Source: Haliotis rufescens | Lineage: Eukaryota | NCBI RefSeq assembly: GCF_023055435.1 | Contig: NW_025964223.1 | Location: 18,042,001-18,106,000, forward strand | Reading direction: 5' to 3' | DNA length: 64,000 bases | In this document: piece by piece, positions 5,870 through 62,452 of the stretch | Layout of the letters: the number at the start of each line of letters is the position of its first letter | Numbering within the stretch: the stretch's first letter is position 1 | Notes under the pieces: model-generated | Databases searched by the model: none | What the model was told of the DNA's origin: nothing | Seen by the model: the letters and a program-made list of their open reading frames with translations, nothing else | Program-made: the position numbers and the translations under genes

Positions 5870-7146
5870 CTTTATGCTCTGTCTACTCTATTCATGCTTC
5901 GTGCAAGGCGGTTGTGTTCCATTAGTTATGAGGCATATTGTAAACCACAGGCTAATCAGTTACGGGGAAAACCAGCCTTAAAATAGCAATGACGTGTGAC
6001 AGAATATGAAATGAATTTTCCTGTACATCTAAACCAGACTTTATGTTACTGCAGTTTGAGGAAATACTGTTGTGGATGTCTGTTTGATTCGTGTGAGGTG
6101 GGTTGTCTGATTCAAACTATGAACGTGTCGTAAGGATTGTTTGTGACATGGATCTATTTTTAGAGTAGTCGTTTTGAAAATGTTCACAGTTGTGCCTGTG
6201 GTTACAATGACATCAAATACAGCTTTGAATTGCTACCGTTTTAGAATGTGAATATGTATTGATATAATCCTCAAGCCTGACTTATTACCCACTCTTTTTA
6301 TCACTAAAAGACGTTGTGTTTATCGATTATAAAAGTCATATATGAATGTTCAATAATCCATCTTATTAATCTACTCGATAATCAACTTTACTTGTAAAGG
6401 ACAACCACAGAATTCATACATTATCATTAATACGGTATAAATGAGACTATAACACCCGTGATGGGACTGAACCTCCAGCGAGTAGACATTTTTATTGAAT
6501 GAATATTTTCACTATTTGTGACATTCCACATTGTGATGGTATAACCTTAGGATATTTATAACCATATATCGGTCACAAAATACAAACCGCGTTCAGTATG
6601 TGGTAGACAGTTTTGGAATGAATCTAAATAATAGTATCGTGTCAGATCAATTAGCTCCCTCCAACTCAGGCGGGAGTTTCCCTCAGTTTTCACTGATATT
6701 GATTATGACGTATTGCAATACTTCCTGTGTAAAACTACACAGAATCAACACCAAAGGCCTCCTTCAACCCGATGTACAAGCCTACCCAAGAGAATGAGTA
6801 ATATATTACACAATGAGGGATTGCGGTCACTATGCTCTTTCTTCTTTACTAATGCCTCGTGCAAGGTTATTATGTCACACTTATTCTAAATATCTAAACA
6901 GCAACATATTTGAACCAGTTGGGAAACCAGTCTTAAAATAGCCATGAGTTGTGACCGAAGGTGGTATTAAATGTAACCTGTACTGCGACAAGTAGACTCT
7001 GTGTTGAAGAGTCTGAATCTGAGGAAATACATCAGATCTGGATGTCTGTTTAATTCGTGTAAGGTTGGTGGTTTGTTTCATACAAAGAATGTGTGGTGAG
7101 GTTTGTGACATTTTAGAATAGTCATTTAGAAATATTCACTGTTGTG
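5870..7146 (+). repeat. Local ~320 bp duplication (5870-6195 vs 6830-7146) flanking a kB site at 6672-6682
   Basis: Shared tatgctct..tcgtgcaagg..gggaaa(a)ccag..ttaaaatagc..gaggaaatac..ggatgtctgtt..ttgtgacat. GGGAGTTTCCC lies between the copies. Confidence 0.65.
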
Positions 7147-11300: not shown

Positions 11301-13397
11301 CAGACATACATTGTTGCACTATAGCGTGATGACGTCGCCGAAGTTATGATTTCACGTAACGTTATTGTTATCATCTTCTCACGGTTTTCAAAATGGAAGA
11401 AACCATTTTTCATTTTGAATTAAAAATATGAAGATGGACGTATTACACTTAAGTCTACATCATATTGATTTTACTGTGAAGACATTCGTGTATTTAATCA
11501 CACAGAACACAATTTTCGTAAAAGTGATTGATAATCTCTAACCGCTGTCATATCGCTGGAATATTGCATGGATAGTTCCATATCTCCCTTTAACTGACTC
11601 GTATGGTTATCATCTCAACGCACAATGCCTTAAATAATTAATGAAGATGTATATTTAACATCCACTGTATGCATTTTAATGCCCATTGAATCATTTCTTC
11701 ATCAGACGCTGGTGATGTCCTTGAACGGGAGGCGTGTCACCGCGCCCTGGAGATGGGCTACAGCAGAGACTGTGTCAGCCAACATGCTCTGGCCATTCTC
11801 AGGAACCAGAGTAAATATAATGTTCTTGTTTCATTCACCATTCGGAGCATATAGACACTCATATAAAATTTCCTTCAAATATGTTATGGTAAAACATATT
11901 ATAAAGTTTGTTTCGAATGCATGTTTATATCGAGGGAAAGCTTTAAGCAGGGAAGGTACCGAAAAATGTCTAAGATATTAGTTTTCCGAACATGTATCAA
12001 TGAAGACATATCATTGAAACATAAGTTGGAAGGTTCTACAGCACTGTTTATACTGCTTCCTCACAGGCCATGTCTCATTGACACTGGATGTCCTGCTCGG
12101 GCAGATCATGGCAGAGGAGGACCTGGAGATGGCTGCTTCTGCGGAAGGCGACTACGATGAGCAACCTGCAGCTGCTGGATCGGGGGCAGAGACGACCTCC
12201 AGCTCAGGAACAGAACTGCAAGGGAATAATGAATTAGTGACAATTGATAATGGATATACACAGGACCCAACCCAAACCATCAAAGCTGCAGCTGCAGGAT
12301 CGACTCCGACAATCTCAATCCTAGGTGCAGAACATCAACAAGAACAGAACCAACAAGTCAAACAGAAACATCTTCAAGCTGGTGCAGCGAAAGCAAGAAT
12401 ACCAATGGGACATGCTGATGAAACTGTCTCATGGCAGAGACCCAGCAGACAAGCATCTGAGCACACAGTGTCAGACGATGAGGATGAGGGGTATGAGGGG
12501 TCCTCCGCGTCGAAGGGAAATACGTTTCAAAGCTTGCCAGTGATGCCATCCGGAAATATAGCCATTACCAAGCAAAAAAAGTCATCCGCTAGGAGAAGTG
12601 AGTATGAACATTACCTGGATTAAGTTGTACACTAACTGTTTTCTGAAACGAAGCTTTCAAATGGAAATGGGAAAGCGAGTTGGATTTTAGACCACTTTTA
12701 GCATCATTATAAGCATTATCCCGGCCATCACACAATGTACATGTGTGGGGAATGTAAAACTGGTTCTTTGGCGTGATGAGCAAAAGGTTAACCACTGCGG
12801 TCCCCACTGCCCCTCCCATATCAAATAAAAAACAATACTGGTATATGTCAATGCATCTTAAAATTGCGGTCAGTACGTATGCTCTGGTTGTACTTGTTTT
12901 CACCTGAAATTAAGAGACTTTCAGTAATAAGATTTAATATAACTACATTTCGGTACTTGTCGGTACCTAATATTAAATAAGAGTATATCCTTTTCGAATG
13001 TTTATTTATGAAACATATTTTATTGTCCAAAAAGACAAAGGATTTGGGTACAAGTGTTAACTTATTACCGCCTTCTCCCTCAATGTTTATGTTTCTGGTA
13101 AATACCAAATTCATCTGATGAGACATGGCCTAACAGTGAGGTGATATATGTGTTTTTTTTGCAGAAAGCACAAAGGAACAATTGAAGGCCACAGAGGAAG
13201 AGACACAGCAGCTGAAAGAGTCGAACTTGTGTAAGATATGTCTGGAGGACCCTGCCAACATCGTTTTCCTCCCTTGTGGGCATCTGGTGGCATGTGCGAT
13301 GTGCGCCCCAGCTCTAGAACGTTGCCCAGTCTGTAGAACACACATCCGGGGATCTGTCCGTGTCCATCTGGCGGCACATCTCAAGGACAAGACTTGA
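8328..13397 (+). CDS. Long IAP (BIR-BIR-UBA-RING), ~1084 aa; exons 8328-10491, 10711-10886, 11122-11167, 11706-11810, 12067-12597, 13165-13397
   Basis: Two C-x2-C-x16-H-x6-C BIRs, with BIR2 split by a phase-1 intron at GFFYA/G. UBA-like ALEMGYS motif. C3HC4 [40 protein letters not shown]. All introns GT-AG, phases consistent, CDS 3255 nt. Confidence 0.92.
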
Positions 13398-31437: not shown

Positions 31438-31704
31438 TGAGTCAGAAATAGCACTTGGGAAATACCAGTCAGGAGTAAAACTAGAATTGACGTGTCCCTG
31501 CCTTATAAATAGACTTGCATTCTTTGTGTGCGAGCTGCGGGTTAGATTATTTATGTTGCATACACGACTTGCAAAGGGACGCAACCGAACTAACCGGCAG
31601 AATTACTAGTCTGAATGACGCACGGCTGTAACATGACTTCCTTTTCTGATCGGAATGATTGAGTCACAGCCAGCCGACGCCATGTTACCACCATATCCGT
31701 AAGT
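31438..31704 (+). promoter_or_regulatory. Promoter and exon 1 of long IAP 32355-37607
   Basis: TGAGTCA at 31438, kB-like GGGAAATACC at 31457, TATAAATA at 31504, donor cc|gtaagt at 31699, acceptor cccag ending 32173. Confidence 0.65.
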
Positions 31705-35300: not shown

Positions 35301-37607
35301 GGCAGGTGTTGGGCAGAAATTACAGGTATGTTTGAGTATGTAATCGGCCCAAATTGCTGTAAAAATGAAACCGTGAAATAAACTGTCACAAATACAAAGG
35401 GCAATGAAGGTATGGGTTGGCAAATAATAACATATGACTTCACAATTGAAAAGAGAGGACACCAATAGTTCCAATAAAGCTAGCGACTGTGATCGTGCAA
35501 ATGACTATTTTACATTACATCATTTCAGACTGAGCGGACGGGAGCCAATATTCCAGCTACAGGTGCCGAGGGTGTGGTTAGGAATGGTGAGCATCTTCAT
35601 ATAATTTTTATGTCATACAAAAAAGAAACCCGTTCTTGTTAGAACAATATGTTTCAGCAATTGTGTGATCTAAGGAGAATGGTAGTTAACTCCAAAGCGT
35701 CATTTGCCAGCATCAACCTCACAATACGTTTTCGCTGCGCCAGGTGTAAATGATATATAAAAACGACAAAATTCTTTCCACAGTCATGTCTTCTTTTTAA
35801 AATGTCGTTCCGTACAAATGTGTCAGTGCATTGTGCATGTAACTGATGCCTTGTGTGTCTGATACAGTCCTGACGAACTTATATCACATTCCAATATATA
35901 TGCAAAAACATAGCATACAGTAGATAGTATCCTTTGCTGCAAATGTAAGATTACATTACTGATCGTTCAGGCGTAAGGTTGTAATAGATATACAATTCAT
36001 TATCACGAATATATTAAAAATGAAACAGTGTCATGCCTCAGAAGCATTTGTACAGAGACGTGTAAGGTATACAAGTAAGAAAAACAATGGTATAGCTGTT
36101 TTAATTTATAATAAATCATTTCTTTATCAGACGCTGGTGATGTCCTTGAACGGGAGGCGTGTCAGCGCGCCCTGGAGATGGGCTACAGCAGAGACTGTGT
36201 CAGACAAAATGCTCTGGACATTCTCAGGAACCAGGGTACAGTCTCCCGAAATAGTATATTGGTATTTTGCATTACAGACATGGGTGATGTCATTTCATCT
36301 TTGACAAATGTAGTATACATCATAGAAATAAACCACAAACGAATGATACTGATCAGTCTCGATTATCTACAGGGCGTAAAAGGCAAACTAGTAGTGAAAT
36401 ATATATGAATGGATCACTGAAATGACACCATATGTTCACGAAAAGGTTAAGCATGGCCTGCCCAGCCAGCAGCAAGAACGGAAACATTACATATTCAGAC
36501 GAGCATATAAATATTCGATCTTAAGATGATGAATGGCAGCGAAACACTTTGTGGACGTAACCGAACACTGAATAGCAGTAAAGTGTGGGTAAAATGTTTT
36601 TAATAGTTTATTACTCTCTCACTCACCGACTGACTGATCGCTTCGTCAGGCTCTGTGATTTGTTTGATTATACGCTGATGGCGTCGGACGTTGCTTATAC
36701 TAGTACTTCACGAATAAGACATTGTATTCCTGACAGGCAATGATTCCTTGAAGTTACATGTCCTGGTAGAACGGATCTTACAAGAAGATCTGGAGATATC
36801 AGAAGCAGCGTCTGCAACAACAACGCAGACCTCATCAGCGGGACTGCCACATACAAAGTCACACAGCCTACTAGCACCTGGAGAGCAACATGGCAGATCA
36901 GCAGGACTACTACAAGGAGATACATACACGGGTATCCTATTTGGACAGCAGCCCGTATTGGGTCAGATAGTGTCGGATGGGGAAGACGAAGGATACGGGG
37001 ATACGGATGAGCCAACATCGCTTTCAGACAGGAACAGCATTCACAGATCAAGGATGCCAAAGGTTAAAGCCAAAAGTGAGTTCTTGTAGGATTAAAGTTT
37101 CTGCTCTGTGCTTTGCCTTTATAATGTACCATTATGTATGAGTAGTGGTTTAATACTTCCTTTAGTAAAACTTCGCAACATGTTGCATTCTGTTATGCCT
37201 CCTCATCAAACTTATGTTCAGTCTACCAATATTCTGTAGCCAAGAGGGTACTCCGACAGTCGTCTCAGACATAGGCAAATGCTGATCCCCCTTCTTAATT
37301 TATCCCTGATAAAAAAATACATCAATGTAATAAAATCGTTTTCGTTTTTGATTCCTTTTGTATCTTTACAGATAAAGCCAAGGAAGAATTAGAAGCCACA
37401 GAGGAAGAGACACAACAGCTACGAGAGTCAAGTGCATGTAAGATCTGTCTGGAGGACCCTGCCAACATCGTCTTTCTACCCTGTGGGCATCTGGTGGCTT
37501 GTGCCGTGTGCGCCCCAGCCCTGGAACGTTGCCCAGTCTGCAGGACACACATCCGGGGATCTGTTCGTGTTCACCTTGCTGACATGGCTTCAGTATCCTC
37601 GCCGTAA
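32355..37607 (+). CDS. Long IAP (BIR-BIR-UBA-RING), ~1020 aa; exons 32355-34503, 35150-35325, 35529-35586, 36131-36235, 36737-37075, 37372-37607
   Basis: Same architecture and exon sizes (176, 105 nt) as the 8328 gene. First coding intron is GC-AG (CAG|GCAAGT). CDS 3063 nt. Start codon uncertain (first in-frame ATG used). Confidence 0.9.
34547..34920 (-). repeat. Inverted copy of 30939-31394 (and 24927-25380) inside an intron
   Basis: tacaggttctactacaccaaatcag..atttggtgcgaaactggggg..tgtgtaacct is the reverse complement of the segment just upstream of the promoter. Confidence 0.85.
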
Positions 37608-43629: not shown

Positions 43630-46600
43630 TTATGAAGACTCCGACACACCTCTTCTTCTAGCGCTTTTGTTAACGTTCCCCTGAAACAGACCACGGAGTG
43701 TCATAAACAAATGATACATGACACATGCAGATGTTTCAGGGTATAAATTATATATTCATTAACCATGTATGTTCAGTATAGCAGGTTTCATACTTTATAA
43801 TGTGATCATTTTCTGGTTATTATTCAAGTGATTTAGTATGGCACCCTACATACAATTTCAAGTGCCTAACATACCTAAATATGGTCATCAACAATCTATA
43901 TAAGGATATTAAGTCGTTTCAATCGTTATATCGTATGAGGTTTGAGGGATATTTTGATAATAGCATGTGAACGTACAAGAGGGCCTCTCCAAAGATCCAC
44001 GCCTCTCTTGATGATCGGACACTTTGGTTGCAGTTCCTCATGCCGGAGATAAGGATCATCAGTAGAGTCCCAGTCCAAAGCCTGGCATCCGCAGTGATAG
44101 CAAGTCAGACCGGTCCCCTTACCTGGTGGGAAGGACACATGGGAAAACTACAGATAAAAGCAAACAGATGAGTCCGACCTCAGTACCTGGAGTGGAAGGA
44201 AGCATGAGAACACTGCGGACAGAAGCAAGCAGATGAGACCAGCCTCTGCACGTGGAGTGGGAGAAAGCATGAGAACACTGCGGACAGAAGCAAGGAGATG
44301 AGACCGGCCTTCGTACCTGGAGTGGAAGGAAGCATGAGAACACTGCGGACAGAAGTAAGCAGATGACACCCTCCTCCGTACCTGGAGTGGAAGGAAGCAT
44401 GAGAACAATACAGACAGAAGCAAGTAGGTGAGACCAGCCTGTGCACGTGGAGTGGGAGGAAGCATGAGAACACTGCGGACAAGAGCAAGCAGATGAGACC
44501 GGCCTCCGTACCTGGAGTGGAAGGAAGCATGAGAACATTACAGACAGAAGCAAGCAGATGAGACCCGCCTCTGCACGTGGAGTGGAAGGAAGCATGAGAA
44601 CACTGAGGACAAGAGCAAGCAGATGAGACCGGCCTTCGTACCTGGAGTGGAAGGAAGCATGAGAACACTGCGGACAGAAGTAAGCAGATGACACCCTCCT
44701 CCGTACCTGGAGTGGAAGGGAGCATGAGAACACTGCGGACAGAAGTAAGCAGATGAGACCCGCCTCTGCACGTGGAGCGGGAGGAAGCATGAGAACACTG
44801 CGGACAAGAGCAAGCAGATGAGACTGGCCTCCGTATCTCGAGTGGAAGGAAGCATGAGAACAATGCAGACAGAAGTAAGCAGATGACACCCTCCTCCGTA
44901 CCTGGAGTGGAAGGAAGCATGAGAACAATACAGACAGAAGCAAGCAGATGAGACCGGCCTTCGTACCTGGAGTGGAAGGGAGCATGAGAACACTGCGGAC
45001 AGAAGTAAGCAGATGAGACCGGCCTCCGTACCTGGAGTGGAAGGAAGCATGAGAACAATACAGACAGAAGCAAGCAGATGAGACCGGCCTCCGTACCTGG
45101 AGTGGAAGGAAGCATGAGAACAATGCAGACAGAAGCCAACAGATGAGACCGGCCTCCGTACCTGGAGTGGAAGGAAGCATGAGAACACTGCGGACAGAAG
45201 TAAGCAGATGGCACCCTCCTCCGTACCTGGAGTGGAAGGAAGCATGAGAACAATACAGACAGAAGCAGGCAGTTGAGACCGGCCTCCGTACCTGGAGTGG
45301 AAGGAAGCATGAGAACAATACAGACAGAAGCAAGTAGGTGAGACCAGCCTCTGCACGTGGAGTGGGAGGAAGCATGAGAACACTGCGGATAAGAGCAAGC
45401 AGATGAGACCGGCCTCCGTATCTCGAGTGGAAGGAAGCATGAGAACAATACAGACAGAAGCAAGTAGGTGAGACCAGCCTGTGCACGTGGAGTGGGAGGA
45501 AGCATGAGAACACTGCGGACAAGAGCAAGCAGATGAGACCGGCCTCCGTACCTGGAGTGGAAGGAAGCATGAGAACATTACAGACAGAAGCAAGCAGATG
45601 AGACCCGCCTCTGCACGTGGAGTGGAAGGAAGCATGAGAACACTGAGGACAAGAGCAAGCAGATGAGACCGGCCTTCGTACCTGGAGTGGAAGGAAGCAT
45701 GAGAACACTGCGGACAGAAGTAAGCAGATGACACCCTCCTCCGTACCTGGAGTGGAAGGGAGCATGAGAACACTGCGGACAGAAGTAAGCAGATGAGACC
45801 CGCCTCTGCACGTGGAGCGGGAGGAAGCATGAGAACACTGCGGACAAGAGCAAGCAGATGAGACTGGCCTCCGTATCTCGAGTGGAAGGAAGCATGAGAA
45901 CAATGCAGACAGAAGTAAGCAGATGACACCCTCCTCCGTACCTGGAGTGGAAGGAAGCATGAGAACAATACAGACAGAAGCAAGCAGATGAGACCGGCCT
46001 TCGTACCTGGAGTGGAAGGGAGCATGAGAACACTGCGGACAGAAGTAAGCAGATGAGACCGGCCTCCGTACCTGGAGTGGAAGGAAGCATGAGAACAATA
46101 CAGACAGAAGCAAGCAGATGAGACCGGCCTCCGTACCTAGAGTGGAAGGAAGCATGAGAACAATGCAGACAGAAGCCAACAGATGAGACCGGCCTCCGTA
46201 CCTGGAGTGGAAGGAAGCATGAGAACACTGCGGACAGAAGTAAGCAGATGACACCCTCCTCCGTACCTGGAGTGGAAGGAAGCATGAGAACAATACAGAC
46301 AGAAGCAGGCAGTTGAGACCGGCCTCCGTACCTGGAGTGGAAGGAAGCATGAGAACAATACAGACAGAAGCAAGTAGGTGAGACCAGCCTCTGCACGTGG
46401 AGTGGGAGGAAGCATGAGAACACTGCGGACAAGAGCAAGCAGATGAGACCGGCCTCCGTATCTCGAGTGGAAGGAAGCATGAGAACAATGCAGACAGAAG
46501 CCAACAGATGAGACCGGCCTTCGTACCTGGAGTGGGAGGAAACATGAGAAGAATGCAGACAGCGCGCAGCGCAGACCTGGTATGGATGAACACTTAATGG

Positions 46601-47055
46601 ATAGTTAATTTGGAAACATATATGCGATCACATGCACTGTCAATAGGCAACTCTCCTTTATACTTTATATATCAGAAAAAATAGTATCAGTGTGTGTGAA
46701 TTAGGCTTTTCACCCAGGCTTATAGTCTAACACATCAGCTACTGATGTTACCTGTATGGTAGAACCCTGCCGCGGCTATAGTCTCTAGCCTACTAGATGT
46801 CATGTCCGAGATTTCTTCACCAGCCTCCAGCAAGGTTTCGATTCGCTCTCTCAGGGTCATCCAAACACGAGGGTACCTGGAGGGACGCTGGGATATCAGT
46901 GCCACCATCTCCTGTAGGTTCATCTGGTGACTCGGTCTCATCCCCGCCAAGACTTGGGAGATGATCTCACGCCAATCACGAGTGAAGGCGCGAGGAATTG
47001 AGCGTAAGTCACTGTCCAGAAGGTAGGGGTATTTTCCGCGGAAATTAGGACGCAT
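43630..47055 (-). CDS. BIR-only protein, ~166 aa; exons 47055-46752, 44122-43977, 43680-43630
   Basis: RERIETL..IAAAGFYHT/G joins in phase 1 to KGTGLTCYHCGCQALDWDSTDDPYLRHEELQPKCP (C-x2-C-x16-H-x6-C). Terminal exon GNVNKSARRRGVSESS* is followed directly by AATAAA (plus-strand 43621-43626). CDS 501 nt. Confidence 0.85.
44125..46560. repeat. Intronic minisatellite, 65-bp unit, ~37 copies, with a 1040-bp (16-unit) higher-order duplication
   Basis: Unit agcatgagaacactgcggacagaagcaagcagatgagaccggcctccgtacctggagtggaagga. The variant order at ~44400-45440 recurs at +1040. Confidence 0.97.
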
Positions 47056-48042
47056 TTGGCTGAAATCACACATAAGAAAAACACATTAATCAAAATATTA
47101 ATCAGAAATAGCAATGGTCCAAGGCGCTTCCTCGTGTCAAGTCAAGTATCAAAGTATCTTCTCAAACTATGTGTCAGGAGAGAGAGAAAACATATCATTT
47201 TAGCATGTAACATATTATTTAGTATTTACTTATTCTGATTTGGGCAGAGATTTCTTGTTAGTATGGACAAGGGTTAGTCGCTTCTACATGTTTAAATGAC
47301 ATGAGGCATGACCCCATGCGTTTAATCCATTGTAAAGGCAAATATCTAGGATATATCGCACAGCCACGTAGCGCTATTTTCATTTACAGAAGCAATTACA
47401 AATTCCAGTTTGACCGCTGCGCATGTCATTTCAAGCATGTGTACAGATGAGGCGTTTTTTGAAAGTTCTCTTTTTTAATGCTATTTTAGTTATAGTATAC
47501 AACTTGGTATATTGATTGATAAATATATTGTTTGATATTTTGTCTGCAAAACTATACCAGGCACTGTTTGAAAATGAGTAAGTTTTGATATCGCTTACCT
47601 CAATGCTTCTGCGGGTAAATACCGTTTGAAGAACGAGCATGGTATGGATTTCTTTATCCGGCCGGTGAGCTGTGTATAATAATAGAATTGACGTGTCGTT
47701 GTCACACTATCACATGCAGGTATTGTAAGCGTGATGCATGACACACTTATATCTTCTCACCCAACTATTGATGTGGTCGACCTATTTCTAGGTGTTATAT
47801 TTCAAGAATTTCTAAGACGTTTAACCTTTGAATAGCATTGTTTAATCATAACAAGACATGTAATTTACCTTTTCCCTGAGCGTGTCTATATTTGTAACTA
47901 ACATTTGTTAAATCTTCTGGGCAGTTGTGATATTTTTGTTTAAATGAGTCGAATTCAAAGGATATTCTATATATAGGTAATGTAAGAGTGCATGTATGAG
48001 TCGCACGACTCTCCCACGACATAACTGACGCTATTGCCATTA

Positions 48043-48790
48043 GTGACGGCAGTGTAAAGAAGGCGACTAAGGGTAGTGACAGGCGTAGGAAGAGTACGAC
48101 TAGGAGTAATGACGACCGTGGGCCTGGGAGGAGTGACGGCCATAGCAAGAAGGCGACTAAGGGTAGTGACAGGCGTAGGAAGAGTACGACTAGGAGTAAT
48201 GGCGACCGTGGGCCTGGGAGGAGTGACGGCAGTATAAAGAAGGCGACTGGGGGTAGTGACAGGCGTAGGAAGAGTACGACTAGAAGTAATGGCGACCGTG
48301 GGCCTGGGAGGAGTGACGGCAGTATAAAGAAGGCGACTGGGGGTAGTGACAGGCGTAGGAAGAGTACGACTAGAAGTAATGGCGACCGTGGGCCTGGGAG
48401 GAGTGACGGCTATATGAAGAAGGCGACTGAGAGTAGTGACGCGTAGGAAGAGTAAGACTAGGAGTAATGACGACCGTGTGCCTGGGAGGAGTGACGGCCA
48501 TAAGGAGAAGGCGACTGAGAGTAGTGACAGGCGTAGGAAGAGTACGACTAGGAGTAATGACGACCGTGGGTCTGGTTGGAGTGACGGCCATAGGAAGAAG
48601 GCGACTGAGGCTAGTGACGGGCGTAGGAAGAGTACGACTAGGAGTAATGACGACCGTGGGCCTCGGAGGAGTGACGGCAGTGTAAAGAAGGCGACTGAGG
48701 GTAGTGACACCCGTAGGAAGAGTACGACTAGGAGTAACGACGACCGTGGGCCTGGGAGGAGTGACGGCTATATGAAGAAGACGACTTAGT
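48043..48790. repeat. Minisatellite, 90-bp unit, ~8 copies
   Basis: gtgacggc recurs at 48043, 48133, 48223, 48313, 48403, 48491 and onward. Confidence 0.95.
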
Positions 48791-49417: not shown

Positions 49418-49578
49418 TATAAATATATCGCCACGACATGTACAGTTATAGTGTTGGGGTTAAATACACACGTCAGACACAAACAAACTGGGGAAGTTTT
49501 GTTGCCTGCTGTGTATAACAACATCCTGCATACTATAAGCTAAGCAAATACATGCTTAACCCCAGCCTACAGGTAAGG
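49418..49578 (+). promoter_or_regulatory. Probable TATA and non-coding exon 1 of the plus-strand BIR-only gene
   Basis: TATAAATA at 49418, strong donor cag|gtaagg at 49573, acceptor ccacag ending 51203 before ATG 51231. Confidence 0.55.
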
Positions 49579-49607
49579 ACTGTGCTCTTTTATTTGTATA
49601 TGATACA

Positions 49608-49870
49608 GACCCTTGAAGATGTTGGGTAGAATAGGTCTTAAACAACCCATACTTGTCATAAAAGGCGACTGTGCTTGTCGTAAGAGGCGACTAACGGGAT
49701 GGGGTGGTCAGGCTCGCTGACTTGGTCGATGCATGTCATCGTATCCCAATGCGTGGTTCTATGCTCATGATATCAGTCACTGGATTGTCTGGTCCTCGAT
49801 TATTTACAGACCACCGATATATAGCTGGACTATTGTTGAGTGGTGTGTTAAACAACAAACAAACAAACAA
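49608..49870 (+). mobile_element. Deu/Nin-domain SINE
   Basis: cttgtcgtaagaggcgactaacgggatggggtggtcaggctcgctgacttgg core and (AAAC)n tail. Confidence 0.85.
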
Positions 49871-50459
49871 ATACATATAATACTGCATTGTACACATGTT
49901 ATTTAAAGTTGAGACGCGGTTATGACGTCACTCTATTGTTGCAACTGAAGATTATCTGTAACGAAGTTACAGTGTACTAACCTACAACATGCAATAATTT
50001 TAAGCATGTGAATTACGAGTGTTCTTGCTACAACGACCAATTGACACAAAATACACATGCAGTACGAATATACGGGCGAGTTCAAATGAAGCACGGGTAT
50101 CCAAACCTAATGTTTAAAGATTCTCGTTTAATTTTTCATTATTCATTGATATATATTAATTTTCATGCTGTATGTTGAATTTGATTACGCAGTATTTTGT
50201 TATTTGATGCCGTATTTTAAGTCAAATAACATACGCGTAACTGAACATTCTTTACAAATAACGATCGCTGGTTCGTACATGTTTTGAAACGGATGTCCAG
50301 TTATTTGTGGGTAATCCTTATCCATACCGAAACGACACACAAGGGTTGACAAATATAAATACCTTTCCGAGAAGCTCGAAATAGTCTGAAGACTTCGTCT
50401 GATCTATTATATCTGATCTGATGTGATATGCCTAATGGTCTCAGCAGTTGGAGAATTAA

Positions 50460-50690
50460 GAGTGAGCGAGTGAGTGAGTTGGGTTGGAAAGCCCGAAGTG
50501 ATGCAGGTCTCAGACGTTTAACCACTTCGGTGAAACCCACGAACACGTGTATGGTGCTGACAAACCTAGAAACATCATCGGGGCACACCGGGATTCGAAC
50601 CCACAATCATAGGTTTCTGGCGTACCAAAGGGATGCAACTCTGCACAGCGAATCCCGGCGCCTTAGACGACTGGGCCACCCGTGCCCCCG
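50460..50690 (-). mobile_element. tRNA-derived SINE with long A-B box spacing
   Basis: Minus strand reads gggtggcccagtcgtctaaggcgcc...gtgggttcgaatccc. Second copy at 54497-54766; decayed copies near 230, 5190 and 7785. Confidence 0.8.
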
Positions 50691-51230
50691 GGAGAACTAA
50701 GAGACGTACATGATTTGTTACTGTTGTGAGCGGGATTGCTCCACGGCATTTTGTTTGTTGTCAGGGCTAGGTCAAGACGCTGTAGTCATGCCCTGTCTGA
50801 AACTGAGACCCTTTATGTATTTAATTAAGGAAATCATTTACTGTGAGCATAAGTTACAATGTGCAATTTCAGCTGAGAAACGAAGGGTTGATTCAAAGTT
50901 GCAGTGTCTTTCCAATGTTCCTGCAGTAAAATGATACGGTCTGATGCTGTTCAGAAAGGGATGCACGAGTGAACATGACTGTGACCTGTTTCACTTGTGA
51001 TACGAGATAGACGAAACAATGTAAATACTTGTGAAATGAAATACAAACACGTTACACATAATGAAAGCCACCGATTTATAATATTTATATATAACATTAC
51101 ACCTAGTCCCTCTTTAAACAGATTAGGATCATATATTCTTCTTTAGTCGTTCAGCAAATCTGAAACCAGTAATTCCAGCAAGAGTATTGTCTTGTGTCCA
51201 CAGAAAATCGTAAGGTTTCGTGATTCAACA

Positions 51231-52928
51231 ATGAACAGATCCACTGGCAGACATCAGAGTTATGAATGCGAAGATGTTGGAGGGATTCTCAGCGATTTTA
51301 TGAACGCAAAACTGCAGGAACCGTACGCCCACTGCAACGTGGAATGCATCGGATTGACGCTGAGACAGAAGATGCTGCTGTTATACCAACCACCAACATC
51401 CAAACCGCAACATCGTCGTCTGTGGAATACAGAGGACAGACTCGACACACTGATGGCAGCTACAGACAATATTGCTGACATTCCTGCTGCTGGACTCGCT
51501 ACCATTGCTCAAGCAGGCTTCTTCCACTCAGGTAGAGTTTAAAACCTGTGCATACAACATTGTTGAGATATATTAGTACATACTTTTGTTATGTAAATGT
51601 CATCCTCTATGAAGACAGCCGCCGTGATATTGCTGGAATATTGCTAAAAGCGGCATAAAACCATACTCACTTTTAAGATAACATTATATCCCAAATAATT
51701 CTATCATAATAGATACCATGGACTTATGCTTCACCACAGCTTCGGTTAGAGTCCGATTCAAATGTCACATGCTTAATAACCGTCCAATCCAATTACACTC
51801 ATGTTATGTCGGATCTTAATGATCTGAGAAATGAAGATGTTACGTCAACTCATATACAACTGGCACATGTTCCGATTTAAGGATGCGCAAATAGAATATT
51901 GGGAGATATTCCTATTCAGGTTTTCTATCCGCAGGGACTGATAACACCTTGACGTGTTTCTCCTGTGGCTGCCACGCCCACGGTTGGAGTGTTGACGATG
52001 ATCCCTGGAGGCGACATGCGGAGCTGCAGATGACGTGCCCGGTGTTGTGCAGGAACGTCTACACACAAATCAAGGAAGGGGTAAATGACTATGAGTGAGT
52101 GAGTGAGTATGCTTTTACGCCGCCTTTAGCAATATTCCAGCAATATCACGGCGAGGGACACCTGAAATGACTATGAAATATGCCGTCTCCATATCGTACC
52201 GAATCTACATTAGACCATTATGAACACGTTTCAAACCTCTAAGCTGAACACCGTCGTTGGTTTACCTCCTATGTATATATTATGCTTTAGCTGATGACCG
52301 TGTATCCCTTATTGAAAGATTCGTACTGAACAACTACAGCATGTTGGATAGAAAAAGCCGTCGAACAATTTCTAAAATGTGTTTTGTATAAATAAGTGAC
52401 ACAGACCCGATTTAGCGTTTCTCACCATCATACTGACAAATGCAGTATTAACATTAGACTAGCATTCAGTCTTAAAATCGTATATTACACAATATCCTTC
52501 TTGACTCTAAAAATATAAAAATAAAAATTTCCCTATGCTGATTTCATAGAGAGCTAGCTATATCTGGCTAGACTTGCTTTTGTATGCGTTTCTAGATTAT
52601 TATTTTTTCATAAAATAAATATATTCAACAATCATGGTGCAGGGCTATATTTACATCAACACAAACCTTCTGTTCATTGTGTGTTTGGCGAAGTTAGTAT
52701 CTGCGCTCAAAACCTTAAGTTAGAAAGGGTTTTTTTAATCAGTGTGGTTAAACATTAAATGGCATGTAAGAAGAGGGGATACTTCTGCAAACGTTTATCA
52801 GCCTGTGCCAATATTCCTCATCAGGTGACCTCATGTTGCAGAGCATCGCCTACAGGCCCAGGACACGCCATTTCTCGGATAGTGGCGCAAGTCCACCACC
52901 TGCCAGCTATACCAGAACTCTTCACTAG
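51231..52928 (+). CDS. BIR-only protein, paralogue of the 43630-47055 gene; exons 51231-51531, 51935-52080, terminal exon uncertain (52842-52928, 52825-53088 or 53159-53221)
   Basis: EDRLDTL..IAQAGFFHS/G joins TDNTLTCFSCGCHAHGWSVDDDPWRRHAELQMTCP. Exon sizes 301/146 nt mirror 304/146 nt in the minus-strand paralogue. Confidence 0.8.
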
Positions 52929-54319: not shown

Positions 54320-56801
54320 ATGCTGTCCGCACTGTTGCTGGTTGTTCTCGGGCTGTACACAGGTGAGGATCTTGTATAACAGTTACATACATACTGTTGC
54401 ATAACGTCTTGTCACATTCACTGTCTCCGTGGTCTTGTGGTAGTGCGTCCGCCCGTAGAGCGGAAGGTCCGGGGTTCGATCCCCGGCCGCGTATAGAGTG
54501 TGAGTGAGTTGGGTTTAACGCCGCTTTAAACAGTATTCCAGTTATATCACGGCGTGTCAGCTTAATGTGGGAGGAAAGCCCGAGGTGATGCAGGTCTCAG
54601 ACGGTTACTTCTTCGGTGAAACCCACGAGCACGGGTATGGTGCTGACATATAGTTGGGGCGAACCGGAATTCGAACCCACAATCATAGGTTTCTGCCGTG
54701 CCCAAGGGACGCAACTCTGCACAGCAAATCGCGGCGCCCTAGACGACTGGGTCACCCGTGCCCCCGACTGAATATAGACACTGGCCGTAACACAGATACT
54801 CGAAGGAAAAGTATGTAAAATAATGTATCTGTATGGGTTAACCTAGTGATTAGATTAACAGTGATTTTGATTATATAGACTATATTCATTCCCACGGGAG
54901 TCAACCGTCTATATGTGTGATTACACATTATATACCGGGTGATTGTTTCTGCTTCAATGCCAATTTGGAGTTACAAAGGTATTCAACATTCTCTTTGAAA
55001 CAACTATAAAGGGGAATGTAATAACCAGACACATTAGCTTATTTACATGTTACCTCCATGAAATATCCGAAACCCGAGTTGAGAGTCGAACCACCCTATC
55101 CAAAGGACCTGAGGTTGGTCCCGTCAGCAAGGTACATGTGTGTAACACCATCTTGAGGACAAATGTGGATGGTACTGCTACGTAAAATAATATTTTTTTC
55201 GAAATCTACTTGATCGATTGATTGGATATTCTGTGTATATTTATGCATTATACATACAGTCAAACGCACACGCACACGCACACGCACACGCACACGCACA
55301 CGCACATGCACATGCACAACCACGCACACACACAAACTCTTGCACATTGCAAAAGGCTATAAGCTAGATGTAGTATTTCCTGACTGAAAACGGACAAACA
55401 CATTCGATTATACAATGTAAGATATAACAAACTGAGGTTCTCATTGAATTCAAGCACTTCTAACGTCATGCATTGCAACATGAGGTGTAATTCTTAGATC
55501 ACGCTAAGGTGAGTGAATATGGTTTTACACCGCTTTTAGCAATAGTCAAGTAATATCACAGGGGGGGACACCATAAAATCACTGAGGATCGGTGAGGTGG
55601 CCTAGTGGTTAATGAGCTCGCTCGTCGCGCCGAAACCTCGGTTTCGGCTCCCCACATAGGTACAATGTGTGAAGACCATTTCTGGTGTCCCCCGCCGTGA
55701 TATTGTTGGAATATTGCTAAAAACCACATTCACTCACTCACTCACTCACTCACTCGATCGCATGAGAATGAGTGAATAACATCATTTCAGGCTTATTAAG
55801 ACGGCGAACATTAGAAATGGGCATCACCTATTGTTCGGCTTGAGTCACCGATTTGACCACTAGGCTACCCCCTTCTACCTTGATTACGAAAGAAAATTGT
55901 AAGACAGGTGACGGTTGTTTTAAAATTTGACTTCGAAATTAAGGTTATATTTGGGTTGGGCAGTAGAAGGCTTATTCTTTCAAATTTTACATTGACAATG
56001 CACACATTTGTGCCAAAAGACATTCACCTGAGCAAATCGCGCATATTCACATTTAAACAAGGACATGTTTCTAAGTGCGTAACGTTTCGTGGACGTGGTT
56101 ACCGTGTGGTTCAAGCTTTTGCCAAGACTCCACTCATGGGTACAATGTGTAAAGCCCACATCTGATATTTTCTGTTGGCGATATTACTGTATGTACAACA
56201 CTGATCCATAGATATGGAGATTACCAAATCACTCCCCACCCCCTCCATCCACCCTTCCAACACCCCAACACCCACCATCCTACATCAAATGGGGGCGTGG
56301 GGCTGGTGAGGCAGTTGTCAAAGGCTAAAATATTTACCGTGGAGAAATGTTCGAATCCCGGTTCGCTCGGATTTCTTTTCCAGCTTTGTCATCACAACTA
56401 ATTAAGCCCGACATCACTTAGGGCTTTCCTTCCATATTGGGAGCCTTAACCATTTACTTTTATGTGAAAATAGAAGTAAAGAAAGTAAATCATATGTAAG
56501 TAATGTGTTGGCAGGCGTATCATCGGTTTACTTGTAGTATTGCCTTACTGTCGCAGGTGTAGGAGAGGATGGGTCCACACAAAAAGCAGCCGGCCACAAA
56601 CCCAAAGGGGGATCACAGAGATCACACTCCCGGAAGTGGGGAAAGTGTAGGCGGTGCAAGGTGCGCAATGTCAACACAGTGTTCCTGCCGTGCGGTCACG
56701 TGGTGTGTTGTGCTGAGTGCAGCGTCGTCTCCAGGACGTGTGACGTATGCCATGCACGAATCAGAGGCAGTCTCAGAACCAGCCCATTACATGGGGATTA
56801 A
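54320..56801 (+). CDS. Hydrophobic-leader + IAP-type RING microprotein, ~95 aa; exons 54320-54362 and 56557-56801
   Basis: Exon 1 MLSALLLVVLGLYT/G (donor ag|gtgagg, phase 1) joins in frame to VGEDGSTQK..RKWGKCRRCKVRNVNTVFLPCGHVVCCAECSVVSRTCDVCHARIRGSLRTSPLHGD*. The RING exon is solid, though missed by the ORF track in this frame; the exon 1 join is inferred. Confidence 0.65.
54497..54766 (-). mobile_element. tRNA-derived SINE abutting a truncated Meta-SINE head (54424-54493, plus)
   Basis: Same family as 50460-50690. Confidence 0.8.
55263..55335. repeat. (GCACAC)n microsatellite
   Basis: Directly visible. Confidence 0.9.
55588..55755 (+). mobile_element. Short tRNA-derived SINE
   Basis: ggtggcctagtggttaa..ggtacaatgtgtgaag..ggaatattgctaaaa..(CACT)n. 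Confidence 0.8.
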
Positions 56802-57549: not shown

Positions 57550-57859
57550 AACAATTAAGATGACAGCTTTAACAGCATTTGATATTGGCATGACAGTTGC
57601 CCGAATTGAGGTGGGGTAACAAACAAAACATATTTTCAACGTAGTGGACAAAGGGCACGCACGTCTAAAAATCACTCACGTTCAATGACTCGTCACATTC
57701 ATAATGTGTCTGACCACCTCCTGCTACAAGACACGCAAAACCTCTCCGGTCCAAAGAAAAAGTCAGTCGTCTGATGACGTCACTTGGGACAACTCGACAT
57801 TCTTCTTGGAGGGTGATCTATGACATCCCAGGGGTGTTCTGTGGTGGACGTGTCTGGGG

Positions 57860-58672: not shown

Positions 58673-59887
58673 GATTTTCCTCCGGTCAATCAGTCGGAAA
58701 TACTCGTGTGTTCATTATCTGAGAAAATATAATTCGGTTTTCATTATATACCCTATACCATTTATACAAAAAACAACCAGTGTTCCATAATGCCAATTAC
58801 ACATCTGCTACTACAAACGGACATTTTGTTAAACACACTTTTATAGAAATATTATGTAACACTTGCATGATTGAGGGTAAGCGTCTTCCACATGTTGTAA
58901 TTCTTTATTTGCGTTCGTCACCACTCGACCCTTTCCGTAACCTGCAAGAAGACTCGTTCGTTCCCCTATTGATGAATGTTATGTGCGAAAATACGACAAA
59001 CCAATCAGAATGCGCGTATGATTTCAAGTTCTTCGTCAAAGAATCCCTCAGAAATAATTTCTGATTTTACATATATCTTGCATCTAAAAATATACCAAAG
59101 ACACAGTTAAATGTGTTCAATCATACTGTATAATTCCGCACGTCCCGATGTGCTTTAAATTGCATCTGAAATATACATAATATATGGGGAAAATGTGTGA
59201 ACCATTACGTAACGAGTTGACAATTATATTAGGTATGCCCGTTTGCGCCAAGACGGAATTCGGTTGCAAAATAGCCATGAGAAGGGCACGAGTCGCTATT
59301 CGGCTTGTCCCGGAATAACACGAGTTGGTCACGAATGTCCTTATTTAGTATCCATTGCGGTCTTAGGTTAAGACAAGAATTCGGAGTGAGAACGTGTGCA
59401 ATCAGGAATGGTTGAAAAACGTTGGGATTGGATCCTTTAAACCGTCTGTTATGAATAATTGTCTTGATGAGTACTTATGTATAATCACATTTGTTTTTTA
59501 AGTGTCATTTGTCTCTGGACAATGAACACAACATTACTATGTAATACATGAATCAATATGTATCAGAACAACTCTGACGAAGTTGTCTATGAAGAGAAAG
59601 AGTTAATGATCATCACTGATCATTTATGGGCGGAAACATCTGAACGCATAATGTATTATTTCATCACAACTTTCATAATATTTCTTTAGATAGATACAGA
59701 AAACAAGTTGCGGAATGTAAGGTTTTCAGAATGATCGAAGAACCGTTGAACTATTGATTATGGTCAATGATCTATAACTTTCTAATGACCTTTTTACAAA
59801 CGAATGGACTCATTCTCACACACGATGCATGAGTATCGGATGTATGTGTAACTATTAGTATCAGAGGGATTAATCACTCATTAGCAA

Positions 59888-60055
59888 GGGAAAACCACAG
59901 TGCGTAAATATACTGATGACGTTGGGCTATAAATACCGACAAGTGACTGTTGACTAACCCACTGTGAGGTTAGTCCCTCATAACAGTCACACATCTCGGG
60001 CGGCGTGCAACGTGTGGAGGTACAGTTAACGACGAGTTAACTCCCTTAGGTAAGC
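59888..60055 (+). promoter_or_regulatory. Promoter and non-coding exon 1 of RING-only gene 2
   Basis: kB-like GGGAAAACCA at 59888, TGACGT at 59917, TATAAATA at 59928. ATG-free exon ends at donor tag|gtaagc (60050); acceptor ccag ends at 60266. Confidence 0.65.
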
Positions 60056-60280
60056 ACAAGCTGCAGTACAACCTCAGTGTTATGTGAATGTACTTCCAAT
60101 AGTAGACTGATGCCTATGAAACCATGGCCATCACTCACTTTCATAGAACATTTCAAAATCTAACACTATTGTGCTGAATACGTGTAAAATGATGTTATAT
60201 AATGTGTATGGTATGCATTGTGCACACAGAGATGCATGATCATGCACTTGTGTTGTCTGACGCCAGGTGCACATCGGAGG

Positions 60281-60493
60281 ATGTCAGCTGACTCTGTCAA
60301 ATCTGGTTACGGTAAAAGACCCCGTACTTCATCTCACCGGAAGCATGGGAAGTGTCGGTCATGTCGGCAGAAAGACGTGTGTCTTGTGTTTCTACCCTGT
60401 GGTCACGTGGTGTGTTGTGATGACTGCGGCGCGTCCCTCAACACGTGTGTGGTGTGTGACCGACCCATCAGGGGCAGTATCAGAACCTATTGA
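60281..60493 (+). CDS. IAP-type RING-only microprotein, 70 aa
   Basis: MSADSVKSGYGKRPRTSSHRKHGKCRSCRQKDVCLVFLPCGHVVCCDDCGASLNTCVVCDRPIRGSIRTY*. Intact C3HC4 with IAP-like tail; AATAAA near 60714. Confidence 0.82.
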   Translation: MSADSVKSGYGKRPRTSSHRKHGKCRSCRQKDVCLVFLPCGHVVCCDDCGASLNTCVVCDRPIRGSIRTY

Positions 60494-61194
60494 TGTCACA
60501 GACCCCCATACACAGTGAAAGCTCTGTGATGCCACCAGGAACTGCAGCAGAACTTTGTATGAGTTAGTCTCTCTTTGTGTCATTAAATGAAGTCTTTGAT
60601 AGACATTTAAAAGTTGCAAGAACATGCCCACATAACATTTTATAATGGATAATATTGTACACTTTATTCTTTGTTCCGAAATGTTATGTATTTATAACAA
60701 AATTATATAATTCAATAAATATGTAAATTTCGTCATTTCACTATTATTGTTTCAGAGACATATATTTAGGTTTATAGCGAGTTTCTTGCCGCGCGTTTGC
60801 TCTTCTTTAAATACGGAGGAGCACTATCCAGTGTATCACGATTGTATGCTTCAATAATTCATACATTCAAATCAACTGGGGTTCAAGTGTTATAAGCTTT
60901 GTCAGATTTGGTACTTAATTCTAATGAAATACCAAATTATAACTCCAGCATTAAATATATTGTTTTTTTATAAGTGAAGTCTTATTAAGCCTTTTTCAAT
61001 AACACCCATGTTTTCTGTATTGTAACAGGAACCATGGCAGATAACATGTACTATCTGACATTCTTGGAATTTGATGTATGTATTTGACATATAACATTAC
61101 TTTACAACAATCGCATCTGCAGTTCTCTCCTGCATTCATGCCACCTGTGAGGCAGTATACGCTCACCTGGTATCATCACTATTTCACGGTGATT

Positions 61195-61315: not shown

Positions 61316-62452
61316 AAATCATAAACCCATGCTCATAATATACTCGGAGTCGTTCACTCTATCCTGCTTTCGGCATCGATATCTTACAAAATTAAATATG
61401 GAAAGGATTTTGTCGATTTTATTTACTGTTCACCAGGTAATTACGACTTTGGACATACCACCAGATATCACATGTCACTGATAAAAAGGTGAGTTTGAGT
61501 CATGATCAAATACCCCAAGCAATCCATCTGTTTGTGACAAGCACATCCATACCAGCACTATGCATGTATGTACGTCTTCTTTATCATGGAACATATTTCA
61601 GCTGTTTCATCTTTTACAGTCTTCTTTTTACAAACAAATTTCGCATCTAACAACCTTCCCTAGAATTGTGTTTCTTTCCACCTTTTTAAATCATTGCTAA
61701 AGATGACCACACCTTGTTTGGATCAAAGATGCGAATCAAATATGCGAAGAGGATAAGGAAAAATGTGTTGATAAATGTCAGGGCAATCCAAATTGATCAT
61801 ACACTGATACATAACGTATGCCGTATATTTAGCCATACCCACTGTGAGATCCACGTCATGTACGTACTTATCACTGGTGCTGATCGATGTCAGAGTCGTA
61901 TATAGAACACTCAGCCAAGATTACTAGGGAGAGTGTGTACTCTCCATATAAAGGACAGTTCACACAGGCCTCTACCGGAGTTACAGAATTATACCACGAC
62001 AACAGACAGGTAAGCTGTTCAATAAATTTATCACTATGTACATATATGTATAAGCAACTACATCGATAACCAGTGACTGCATTGACAGATTATTAATATT
62101 ATAATGAAGGTCACATTTGTCACAGCAAGAATAACCCAATCACAAAGGCATGGCGGTTAAAATACTAGCGGGGTATGTCGGTTACAAACATTGTGGTTCA
62201 AATGGTGTAACCTTTCATTGCACAAGGAAGTAAGGACGTGTATGAGTTGGAATTTGAATAGTGTGAATTTTATGCTGTGTTTGTGTACATATAGTGGAAC
62301 TGTCATTCTTTCAGTCACTGGATGGCATCGACAAACTATATTATGAAACAAACAAACTTAGAATATAGACTAAGAGTAGTGGAAGTTTTCTTCAATTTAA
62401 GCTATTCAAGTAACTTGTACTTGATTAATTGTTTGACGATTCTACTAAATGG

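Follow-up and report, generated by a model that had tools for sequence, protein, structure and literature searches.

Does a short RING exon at the end of an abalone IAP cluster encode a protein in its own right, and what could a RING with no other domain do there? We addressed this in a 64,000-nucleotide stretch of the Haliotis rufescens genome, called the window here; coordinates refer to it and to its forward strand unless stated otherwise. The window (C445:18,042,001–18,106,000) takes in the right-hand end of an IAP cluster arranged in tandem; its BIR exons lie near 8–10, 20, 26, 32–34 and 51–52 kb and its RING exons at 13.2, 37.4, 56.6 and 60.3 kb. An earlier note, made from the sequence alone, had read the last of these as a 70-residue standalone RING under an immune- or stress-type promoter.

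A standalone gene for a 70-residue RING

The acceptor of the RING exon is in phase 1, as in the last exons of IAPs, so a standalone product needed to be demonstrated. Exon 1 is also open in frame from 59974 and has a possible acceptor at 59986. Because of these three features, we took seriously the reading that the earlier note had named as fatal to its proposal, namely that the RING is spliced from upstream coding exons. Contigs of 6 sequencing runs, out of 24 listed, were aligned to the locus. The junction 60049|60267, which removes a 217-nt GT..AG intron (60050–60266), was present in contigs of four of the six runs (X2, X6, X10 and X12, from three studies with two species labels). All six runs covered exon 2, X1 and X8 covering that exon only, and one depth-3 contig of X6 read through the intron.

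The X10 contig begins at 59965 and runs unspliced through two in-frame stops (TGA at 59965, TAG at 59971), with no differences in exon 1. The X2 contig is likewise unspliced back to its start at 59980. The unplaced 5′ letters of the X6 and X12 contigs are adapter-like, and we take them not to be upstream exon; X6 also carries a 1-nt deletion at 60004 in exon 1. At the other end, one contig, from X12, shows poly(A) at 60731, 12 nt past the polyadenylation signal AATAAA (60714–60719). With two upstream in-frame stops in one contig and poly(A) in another, the product is a standalone 70-residue RING. Splicing from upstream coding exons is excluded by the 5′ ends of these contigs, apart from rare isoforms that may remain.

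The transcript consists of a non-coding exon 1 (59961–60049; the start at 59961 is inferred, 59965 is observed) and exon 2 (60267–60731), which comprises a 14-nt 5′ UTR, the CDS (60281–60493) and the 3′ UTR up to the poly(A) site. As the earlier note had claimed, no ATG occurs in exon 1; within the 554-nt spliced RNA, the earliest one is at 60281, with a purine at −3. The run records are not labelled RNA, and we infer an RNA source as the simple reading of the splice, the poly(A) and the single genomic copy, as a genome search detected no second copy of the RING gene locus. The predicted protein has a mass of 7.7 kDa and a pI of 9.3. As a standalone ORF of fewer than 100 codons that is homologous to one domain of larger proteins, it has the size of a microprotein. 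Pfam found no BIR in it, and the full spliced RNA encodes the RING only. The exact protein is absent from the protein collection searched, and the gene is conserved and apparently unannotated. We are all but certain of the gene itself and consider a function at the protein level likely.

Purifying selection acts on the RING core, which points indirectly to translation. Over 45 RING codons, comparison with each of the three nearest paralogues gave a dN/dS of 0.39, 0.19 and 0.19 (pairwise values, which include the siblings' branches), and pN equalled or exceeded pS in 1.15%, 0% and 0% of 2000 bootstraps. Across the runs, the CDS carried four substitutions, three of them synonymous and the other S52A (P = 0.054, read by hand); indels were present in both UTRs and none in the CDS, and the ORF was intact in six of six runs over the stretches covered. 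These values also bear on the view that the gene is a slowly decaying duplicate, of which RNA is made while the protein is untranslated or dispensable. Such decay would fit the lack of a database protein, the marginal variant test and the broken RING copies in the cluster. We nevertheless consider it distinctly improbable, as all zinc ligands are intact at a dS of ~1–1.5 from the siblings, dN/dS is 0.19–0.39, the ORF is preserved and the start codon is the first ATG with a purine at −3.

The RING domain and its Haliotis clade

Pfam matched 60281–60493 to zf-C3HC4_3 (E 4.6e-11) with eight of eight zinc ligands, and both the C3HC4 ligand spacing and the RING fold are those of an IAP-type RING-HC (zf-C3HC4_3). 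In the structure model, the RING has a pLDDT of 84–92 and residues 1–20 one of 51; a structure search with the model returned the cIAP2 RING 3eb5 as the best match (E 2e-13, rmsd 0.9 Å). Alignment and fold match bear out an IAP-type C3HC4 RING, and the tail stops at the aromatic residue, as had been proposed. A RING-only protein is by definition not a member of the IAP (BIRC) family, which requires at least one BIR, yet its RING is of the IAP type. Ahead of the RING, within the CDS, the model contains a disordered leader of about 22 residues (~1–22). Its basic character agrees with the earlier description; its reading as NLS-like holds weakly, with KRPR as the sole match, absent from three database siblings, in a protein of 7.7 kDa. 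As the predicted model has no helix in residues 1–22, the pre-RING helix of the dimer interface is absent.

Residues were numbered as in cIAP1, by alignment, and their roles taken from excerpts of PMC6349121 and PMC3172091. According to the former, V573 and M575 contact the E2 and R606 is the linchpin in cIAP1, while R614 and F616 work in trans from the other protomer, where Phe or Tyr suffices; cIAP1 F616H is defective, deletion of C-terminal residues abolishes cIAP1 activity, and IAP RINGs dimerise via the RING, the tail and the preceding helix. The latter identifies L585 and I590 of cIAP2 as E2-binding and V568 as a dimer residue. Within the core of the new RING (C25–C59, 60353–60457), V573 is replaced by Ser (S27), M575 by Arg (R29), P603 by Val (V57) and the linchpin R606 by Asp (D60); Asp or Glu occupies the linchpin position in 4 of 174 database RINGs. 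Retained are the dimer valine (cIAP2 V568) as V36, L599, I604 as Val, R614, and F616 as Tyr. By alignment, L53 and V58 correspond to L585 and I590 of cIAP2. S27 and R29 would disrupt the hydrophobic E2-binding core around V573 and M575; with L53 and V58 kept, the E2 face is lost only in part.

The C-terminal strand (I63–Y70, 60467–60490) keeps R68 and Y70 at the positions of cIAP1 R614 and F616. It ends at this aromatic, whereas the cIAP1 and cIAP2 chains extend two residues beyond. None of the 174 fetched database RINGs stops there, and exactly two residues follow in 114 of the 145 that have such an aromatic.

From this residue pattern, the RING alone is predicted to have little or no ligase activity. 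In the excerpt of PMC12326332, the RNF38 row for a linchpin Asp ends in 27.7, which we read as the fold loss of E2-Ub affinity, and the activity of XIAP Y485E was only marginally reduced. The protein could instead be a weak autonomous E3 working with an E2 that does not require the linchpin Arg. L53 and V58 are kept, the effects of linchpin changes in the excerpted literature range from minor loss to abolition, with XIAP active without the Arg, and all three cis residues are lost in 12 of 174 database RINGs, some of them long proteins. Given a Ser at the core hydrophobic position V573 and no domain for binding a substrate, we hold this highly unlikely.

A search of the genome (1.33 Gb) gave 54 RING matches in 66 candidates, the three closest lying at 56.6 kb in the window and at C445:43.66 Mb and C445:43.67 Mb. 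A protein search with the single 70-residue sequence yielded no candidate; alignment-based searches gave matches, and that with the four genomic RINGs detected three further single-RING proteins above 100 bits, in H. rubra and H. cracherodii, the remaining matches above 100 bits being repeat or multi-RING proteins. These seven sequences form one side of a branch with support 98/96 in a RING-core tree (35 rows, 46 columns, long-branch row L019 omitted), rising to 99/100 when the flanks are included. The resulting clade of seven BIR-less IAP-type RINGs comprises Haliotis sequences only, and none of its three database members has a BIR. The database models (XP_046548285/6 and XP_046548280 of H. 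rubra, XP_071114771 of H. cracherodii), whose names are automatic, share the clade (98/96) and the loss of the E2 face. Unlike the RING-only gene, they correspond to the siblings at C445:43.67 Mb, have a hydrophobic or Ser/Thr-rich leader and have no tail aromatic. An Atlas search with the H. rubra RefSeq protein P0003 retrieved generic RING clusters only.

At V573, every one of the seven members has a polar or basic residue; P603 and the linchpin Arg are absent throughout, and in all seven a basic stretch, R-x-(W/H/F)-G-(K/R)-C-R, takes the place of the dimer helix. The four proteins measured have a pI of 8.9–9.3. One of the seven, the 70-residue RING, has the tail aromatic, and its leader is no more than a short basic one. 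Three members have a Ser/Thr-rich leader and three a 14-residue hydrophobic one (window 54.3 + 56.6 kb, C445:43.67 Mb and RefSeq XP_046548285). The nearest such sibling sits 3.7 kb upstream of the RING-only gene. The coding part of its exon 1 (54320–54362) specifies the signal-peptide-like leader and has a phase-1 donor, and its RING exon (56557–56801) is 55% identical to ours and falls into the same clade. In both genomic copies (this one and C445:43.67 Mb, L032), the leader lies on a phase-1 exon that would be spliced to the RING exon; the same phase-compatible combination of signal-peptide-like exon and cationic RING exon is seen in P0003. If the sibling is secreted, what was a cytosolic zinc RING now serves outside the cell as a cysteine-rich peptide, and these genes raise the separate question of whether a cytosolic RING can be reused in this way. 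A descent of exon 1 of the RING-only gene from the sibling's signal-peptide exon was considered and dropped, as the alignment was unconvincing and neither stretch is duplicated in the genome search. We likewise do not claim that the ATG arose by frameshift from the sibling's GAGGATG, given a 3-nt difference between the exons and an ambiguous alignment of the linker.

The six siblings are conserved though they have no tail aromatic, so the clade has another reason to persist. It may have left ubiquitin chemistry, its RING serving as a cationic zinc-finger module whose new ligand might be nucleic acid, a membrane or a different protein, with leaders that direct its location, none here and signal-peptide-like or Ser/Thr-rich in siblings. 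The losses at V573, P603 and the linchpin in seven of seven members, the high pI in the four proteins measured and the basic stretch in place of the dimer helix in every member all suit this reading, as does the hydrophobic leader of three members, since a secreted RING could not meet IAPs. Against it, the ligand is putative, the 70-residue RING is closer to the canonical residue set than its siblings are (V36, L53, Y70), and its gene lies inside an IAP cluster with a promoter module in common. We regard this reading as possible, with the odds against it.

The IAP cluster, its promoter module and a possible pairing partner

A pattern scan of 436 kb around the window, which some degenerate RINGs escape, found 18 intact RINGs. 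Twelve of these have His at F616, and all 12 retain V/I573, P603 and R606; five of them are tandem repeats matching one gene model, and the single-RING ones have tail extensions of 8–14 residues. The His tail occurs in H. asinina too (P0043) but is otherwise rare, at 2 of the 174 fetched database RINGs. Two His-tail RING exons found by Pfam and the scan are candidate partners of the RING-only protein: 13165–13397, of a BIR-BIR-RING IAP starting near 8.3 kb, and 37372–37607, of an IAP starting near 32.2 kb. The two sides have complementary losses, of the E2 face in the one and of the tail aromatic in the other.

The wider region has several further features. C445:17.78–18.08 Mb, including the RINGs at 13165 and 37372, holds an expanded IAP clade with intact E2 face, His tail and extended tail; at C445:18,015,000–18,019,200 (minus strand), an IAP has five tandem His-tail RINGs spaced by ~1,024 bp, and broken RING copies occur in the cluster. 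Small single-BIR genes whose first half is degenerate lie at 49418–52083, at 61950–62010 with C445:18,107,246–18,108,320, at C445:43.669 Mb and at ~44.1 kb (minus strand), and no RING was found near them. That single-BIR genes adjoin RING-only genes at both loci may point to IAPs that have been split, or to partners with a BIR only. A recent tandem duplication of ~6 kb (~20.4–26.1 and 26.4–32.1 kb) contains a two-BIR gene and a kB-CRE-TATA module, with 98% identity over the module. Long GC-rich tandem repeats with minus-strand open frames occupy 44119–46627 and 47967–48790, where Pfam matches look spurious. Beyond the window, a Polinton/Maverick-like element (C445 ~18,112,000–18,127,000; L036–L038) has long ORFs, one capsid-like (Pfam Capsid_N, weak), one of 1269 residues, and others ATPase-like and integrase-like by eye. 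Long single-exon ORFs that end in RINGs are clustered at C1:5.68–5.73 and 66.96–67.03 Mb; these RINGs have neither P603 nor the linchpin Arg and keep the helix and the canonical tail.

Upstream of the RING-only gene, a kB/Rel-like site GGGAAAACC (59888–59896), a CRE half-site TGACGT (59917–59922) and a TATA box TATAAATA (59928–59935) all lie inside 48 bp, the last ~33 nt ahead of the inferred start, with the most 5′ contig starting at 59965. The labels kB and CRE, like NLS above, are consensus names. The motifs thus stand within 50 bp of each other, as the earlier note had them; the kB-like site fails the strict GGGRNWYYCC. Single motifs were unremarkable (5/100 and 11/100 shuffles). In combination, GGGAAAACC followed 12–25 nt on by TGACGT, a pattern taken from the promoter of the RING-only gene alone, occurs at 4 places in the 436 kb where 0.03 would be expected, all on the IAP strand, and a reversed control gave 0. 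Of the other three, one is found 3.8 kb ahead of the BIR of the 13165 IAP, and two, which duplicate each other, stand 7–9 kb ahead of a further His-tail IAP. A closely similar module that includes TATA lies upstream of both the 37372 IAP and its BIR-gene duplicate. The modules at 5965–5995, upstream of the 8.3-kb IAP, and at 31457–31511 (kB-CRE-TATA), upstream of the 32.2-kb IAP, are putative promoter elements. Two composite patterns searched genome-wide gave one match each, both in the window, against controls of 2 and 0; the second pattern was picked after seeing the site. The kB-CRE module is real and non-random, and the gene likely shares its regulation with the cluster IAP genes. No heat-shock element core was found in 59400–59960, and a literature search on the kB-like site with Dorsal returned nothing relevant. 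Full CRE palindromes TGATGACGTCAC stand at 57772 and 58276, 1.7–2.2 kb upstream of the gene start. Descent of the promoter from the 31.4-kb IAP promoter was rejected: it was the best of 3639 tiles by one point only, and 320 of 1821 tiles equalled it once the motifs were masked.

In the excerpt of PMC8459461, MDMX restores the activity of MDM2 tail mutants. The complementary losses in the 70-residue RING and its neighbours resemble those of MDMX and tail-mutant MDM2, and on this analogy we propose that the protein may act in the manner of MDMX, pairing with neighbouring His-tail IAP ligases and supplying them with its intact tail Tyr, a reading to which we assign a probability of roughly one in three. 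The protein would be translated, bind zinc and be unable to activate an E2 in cis, and it would be co-induced with the cluster IAPs through Rel and CREB/ATF-type factors. V36 and the tail strand would join it to a His-tail IAP RING. Within the pair, E2~Ub would sit on the IAP subunit, and its donor ubiquitin would be clamped in trans by R68 and Y70. Such a heterodimer would offer a single active site in place of the weak sites of a His-tail homodimer. In favour of a lent tail, R68, Y70 and V36 are kept and cis catalytic residues lost, mirrored by the His-tail neighbours. The lack of a pre-RING helix in the model and a tail two residues short argue against such pairing. Tail extensions such as the 8–14 residues of the partners may also block it, as work on MDM2 indicates. 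The only partial loss of the E2 face and the conservation of the six siblings without a tail aromatic count against tail lending as well.

The same residues could make the protein a dominant-negative brake, one sense in which it could tune IAP ligases as the earlier note had it, that pairs with IAP RINGs, including canonical cIAP-like ones at C445:17.4–17.5 Mb, its short tail and dead E2 face cutting activity as negative feedback. In favour of a brake are the missing cis catalytic residues, the tail shortened by two residues and the retained V36, and IAP RINGs are described as homo- and heterodimerising (PMC3972657, excerpt). A pure poison would not need R68 and Y70, which are kept, and its dimer interface would have the same deficits as that of a tail-lending partner, so we consider a brake quite unlikely. 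Lending of the tail can also be extended to the whole cluster. The IAP function of abalone would then be divided: an expanded set of BIR-bearing IAPs, naturally disabled by their Phe-to-His tail, would be activated in trans by a single very small RING-only subunit under common regulation, a natural MDM2-mutant/MDMX pair and master switch of the cluster. Sister genes would have fitted the RING with a signal peptide, making it a secreted cationic peptide rich in cysteine. This larger scheme we think unlikely. If tail lending itself is true, it would explain how the enlarged IAP repertoire of abalone can carry a change that cripples cIAP1, and stress and immune signalling in this farmed mollusc would have one inducible point of control.

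Comparison with known systems

Expanded molluscan IAP repertoires show tandem expansion and domain loss like that seen here (excerpts of PMC8917759 and PMC13159474). The excerpts contain no RING-only class, and proteins without a BIR were pruned from the survey in PMC8917759. As such surveys rest on the BIR domain, BIR-less offshoots go uncounted. A full-text search of mainly open-access literature found no paper on abalone or molluscan offshoots of IAPs that have a RING only or a signal peptide.

With the RINGs of cIAP1, cIAP2 and BIRC7 (BIRC2/3/7; PDB 3eb5, 6hpr, 4auq), the 70-residue RING shares the C3HC4 spacing, the fold, the dimer valine, the tail Arg and the tail aromatic. It differs from them in having no BIR, UBA or CARD/DD and no pre-RING helix, in the replacement of V573, M575, P603 and R606, in a tail two residues shorter and in being a natural standalone gene. 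MDMX is multidomain and comes from a different RING subfamily, its fold matching at no better than E 1e-2, and its partner binding is shown, where ours is proposed; the 70-residue RING is not a member. The likeness lies in the working logic that we propose by analogy with the MDM2-MDMX heterodimer (PMC8459461, excerpt), in which a RING without activity of its own completes the site of its partner with an aromatic tail and rescues tail mutants.
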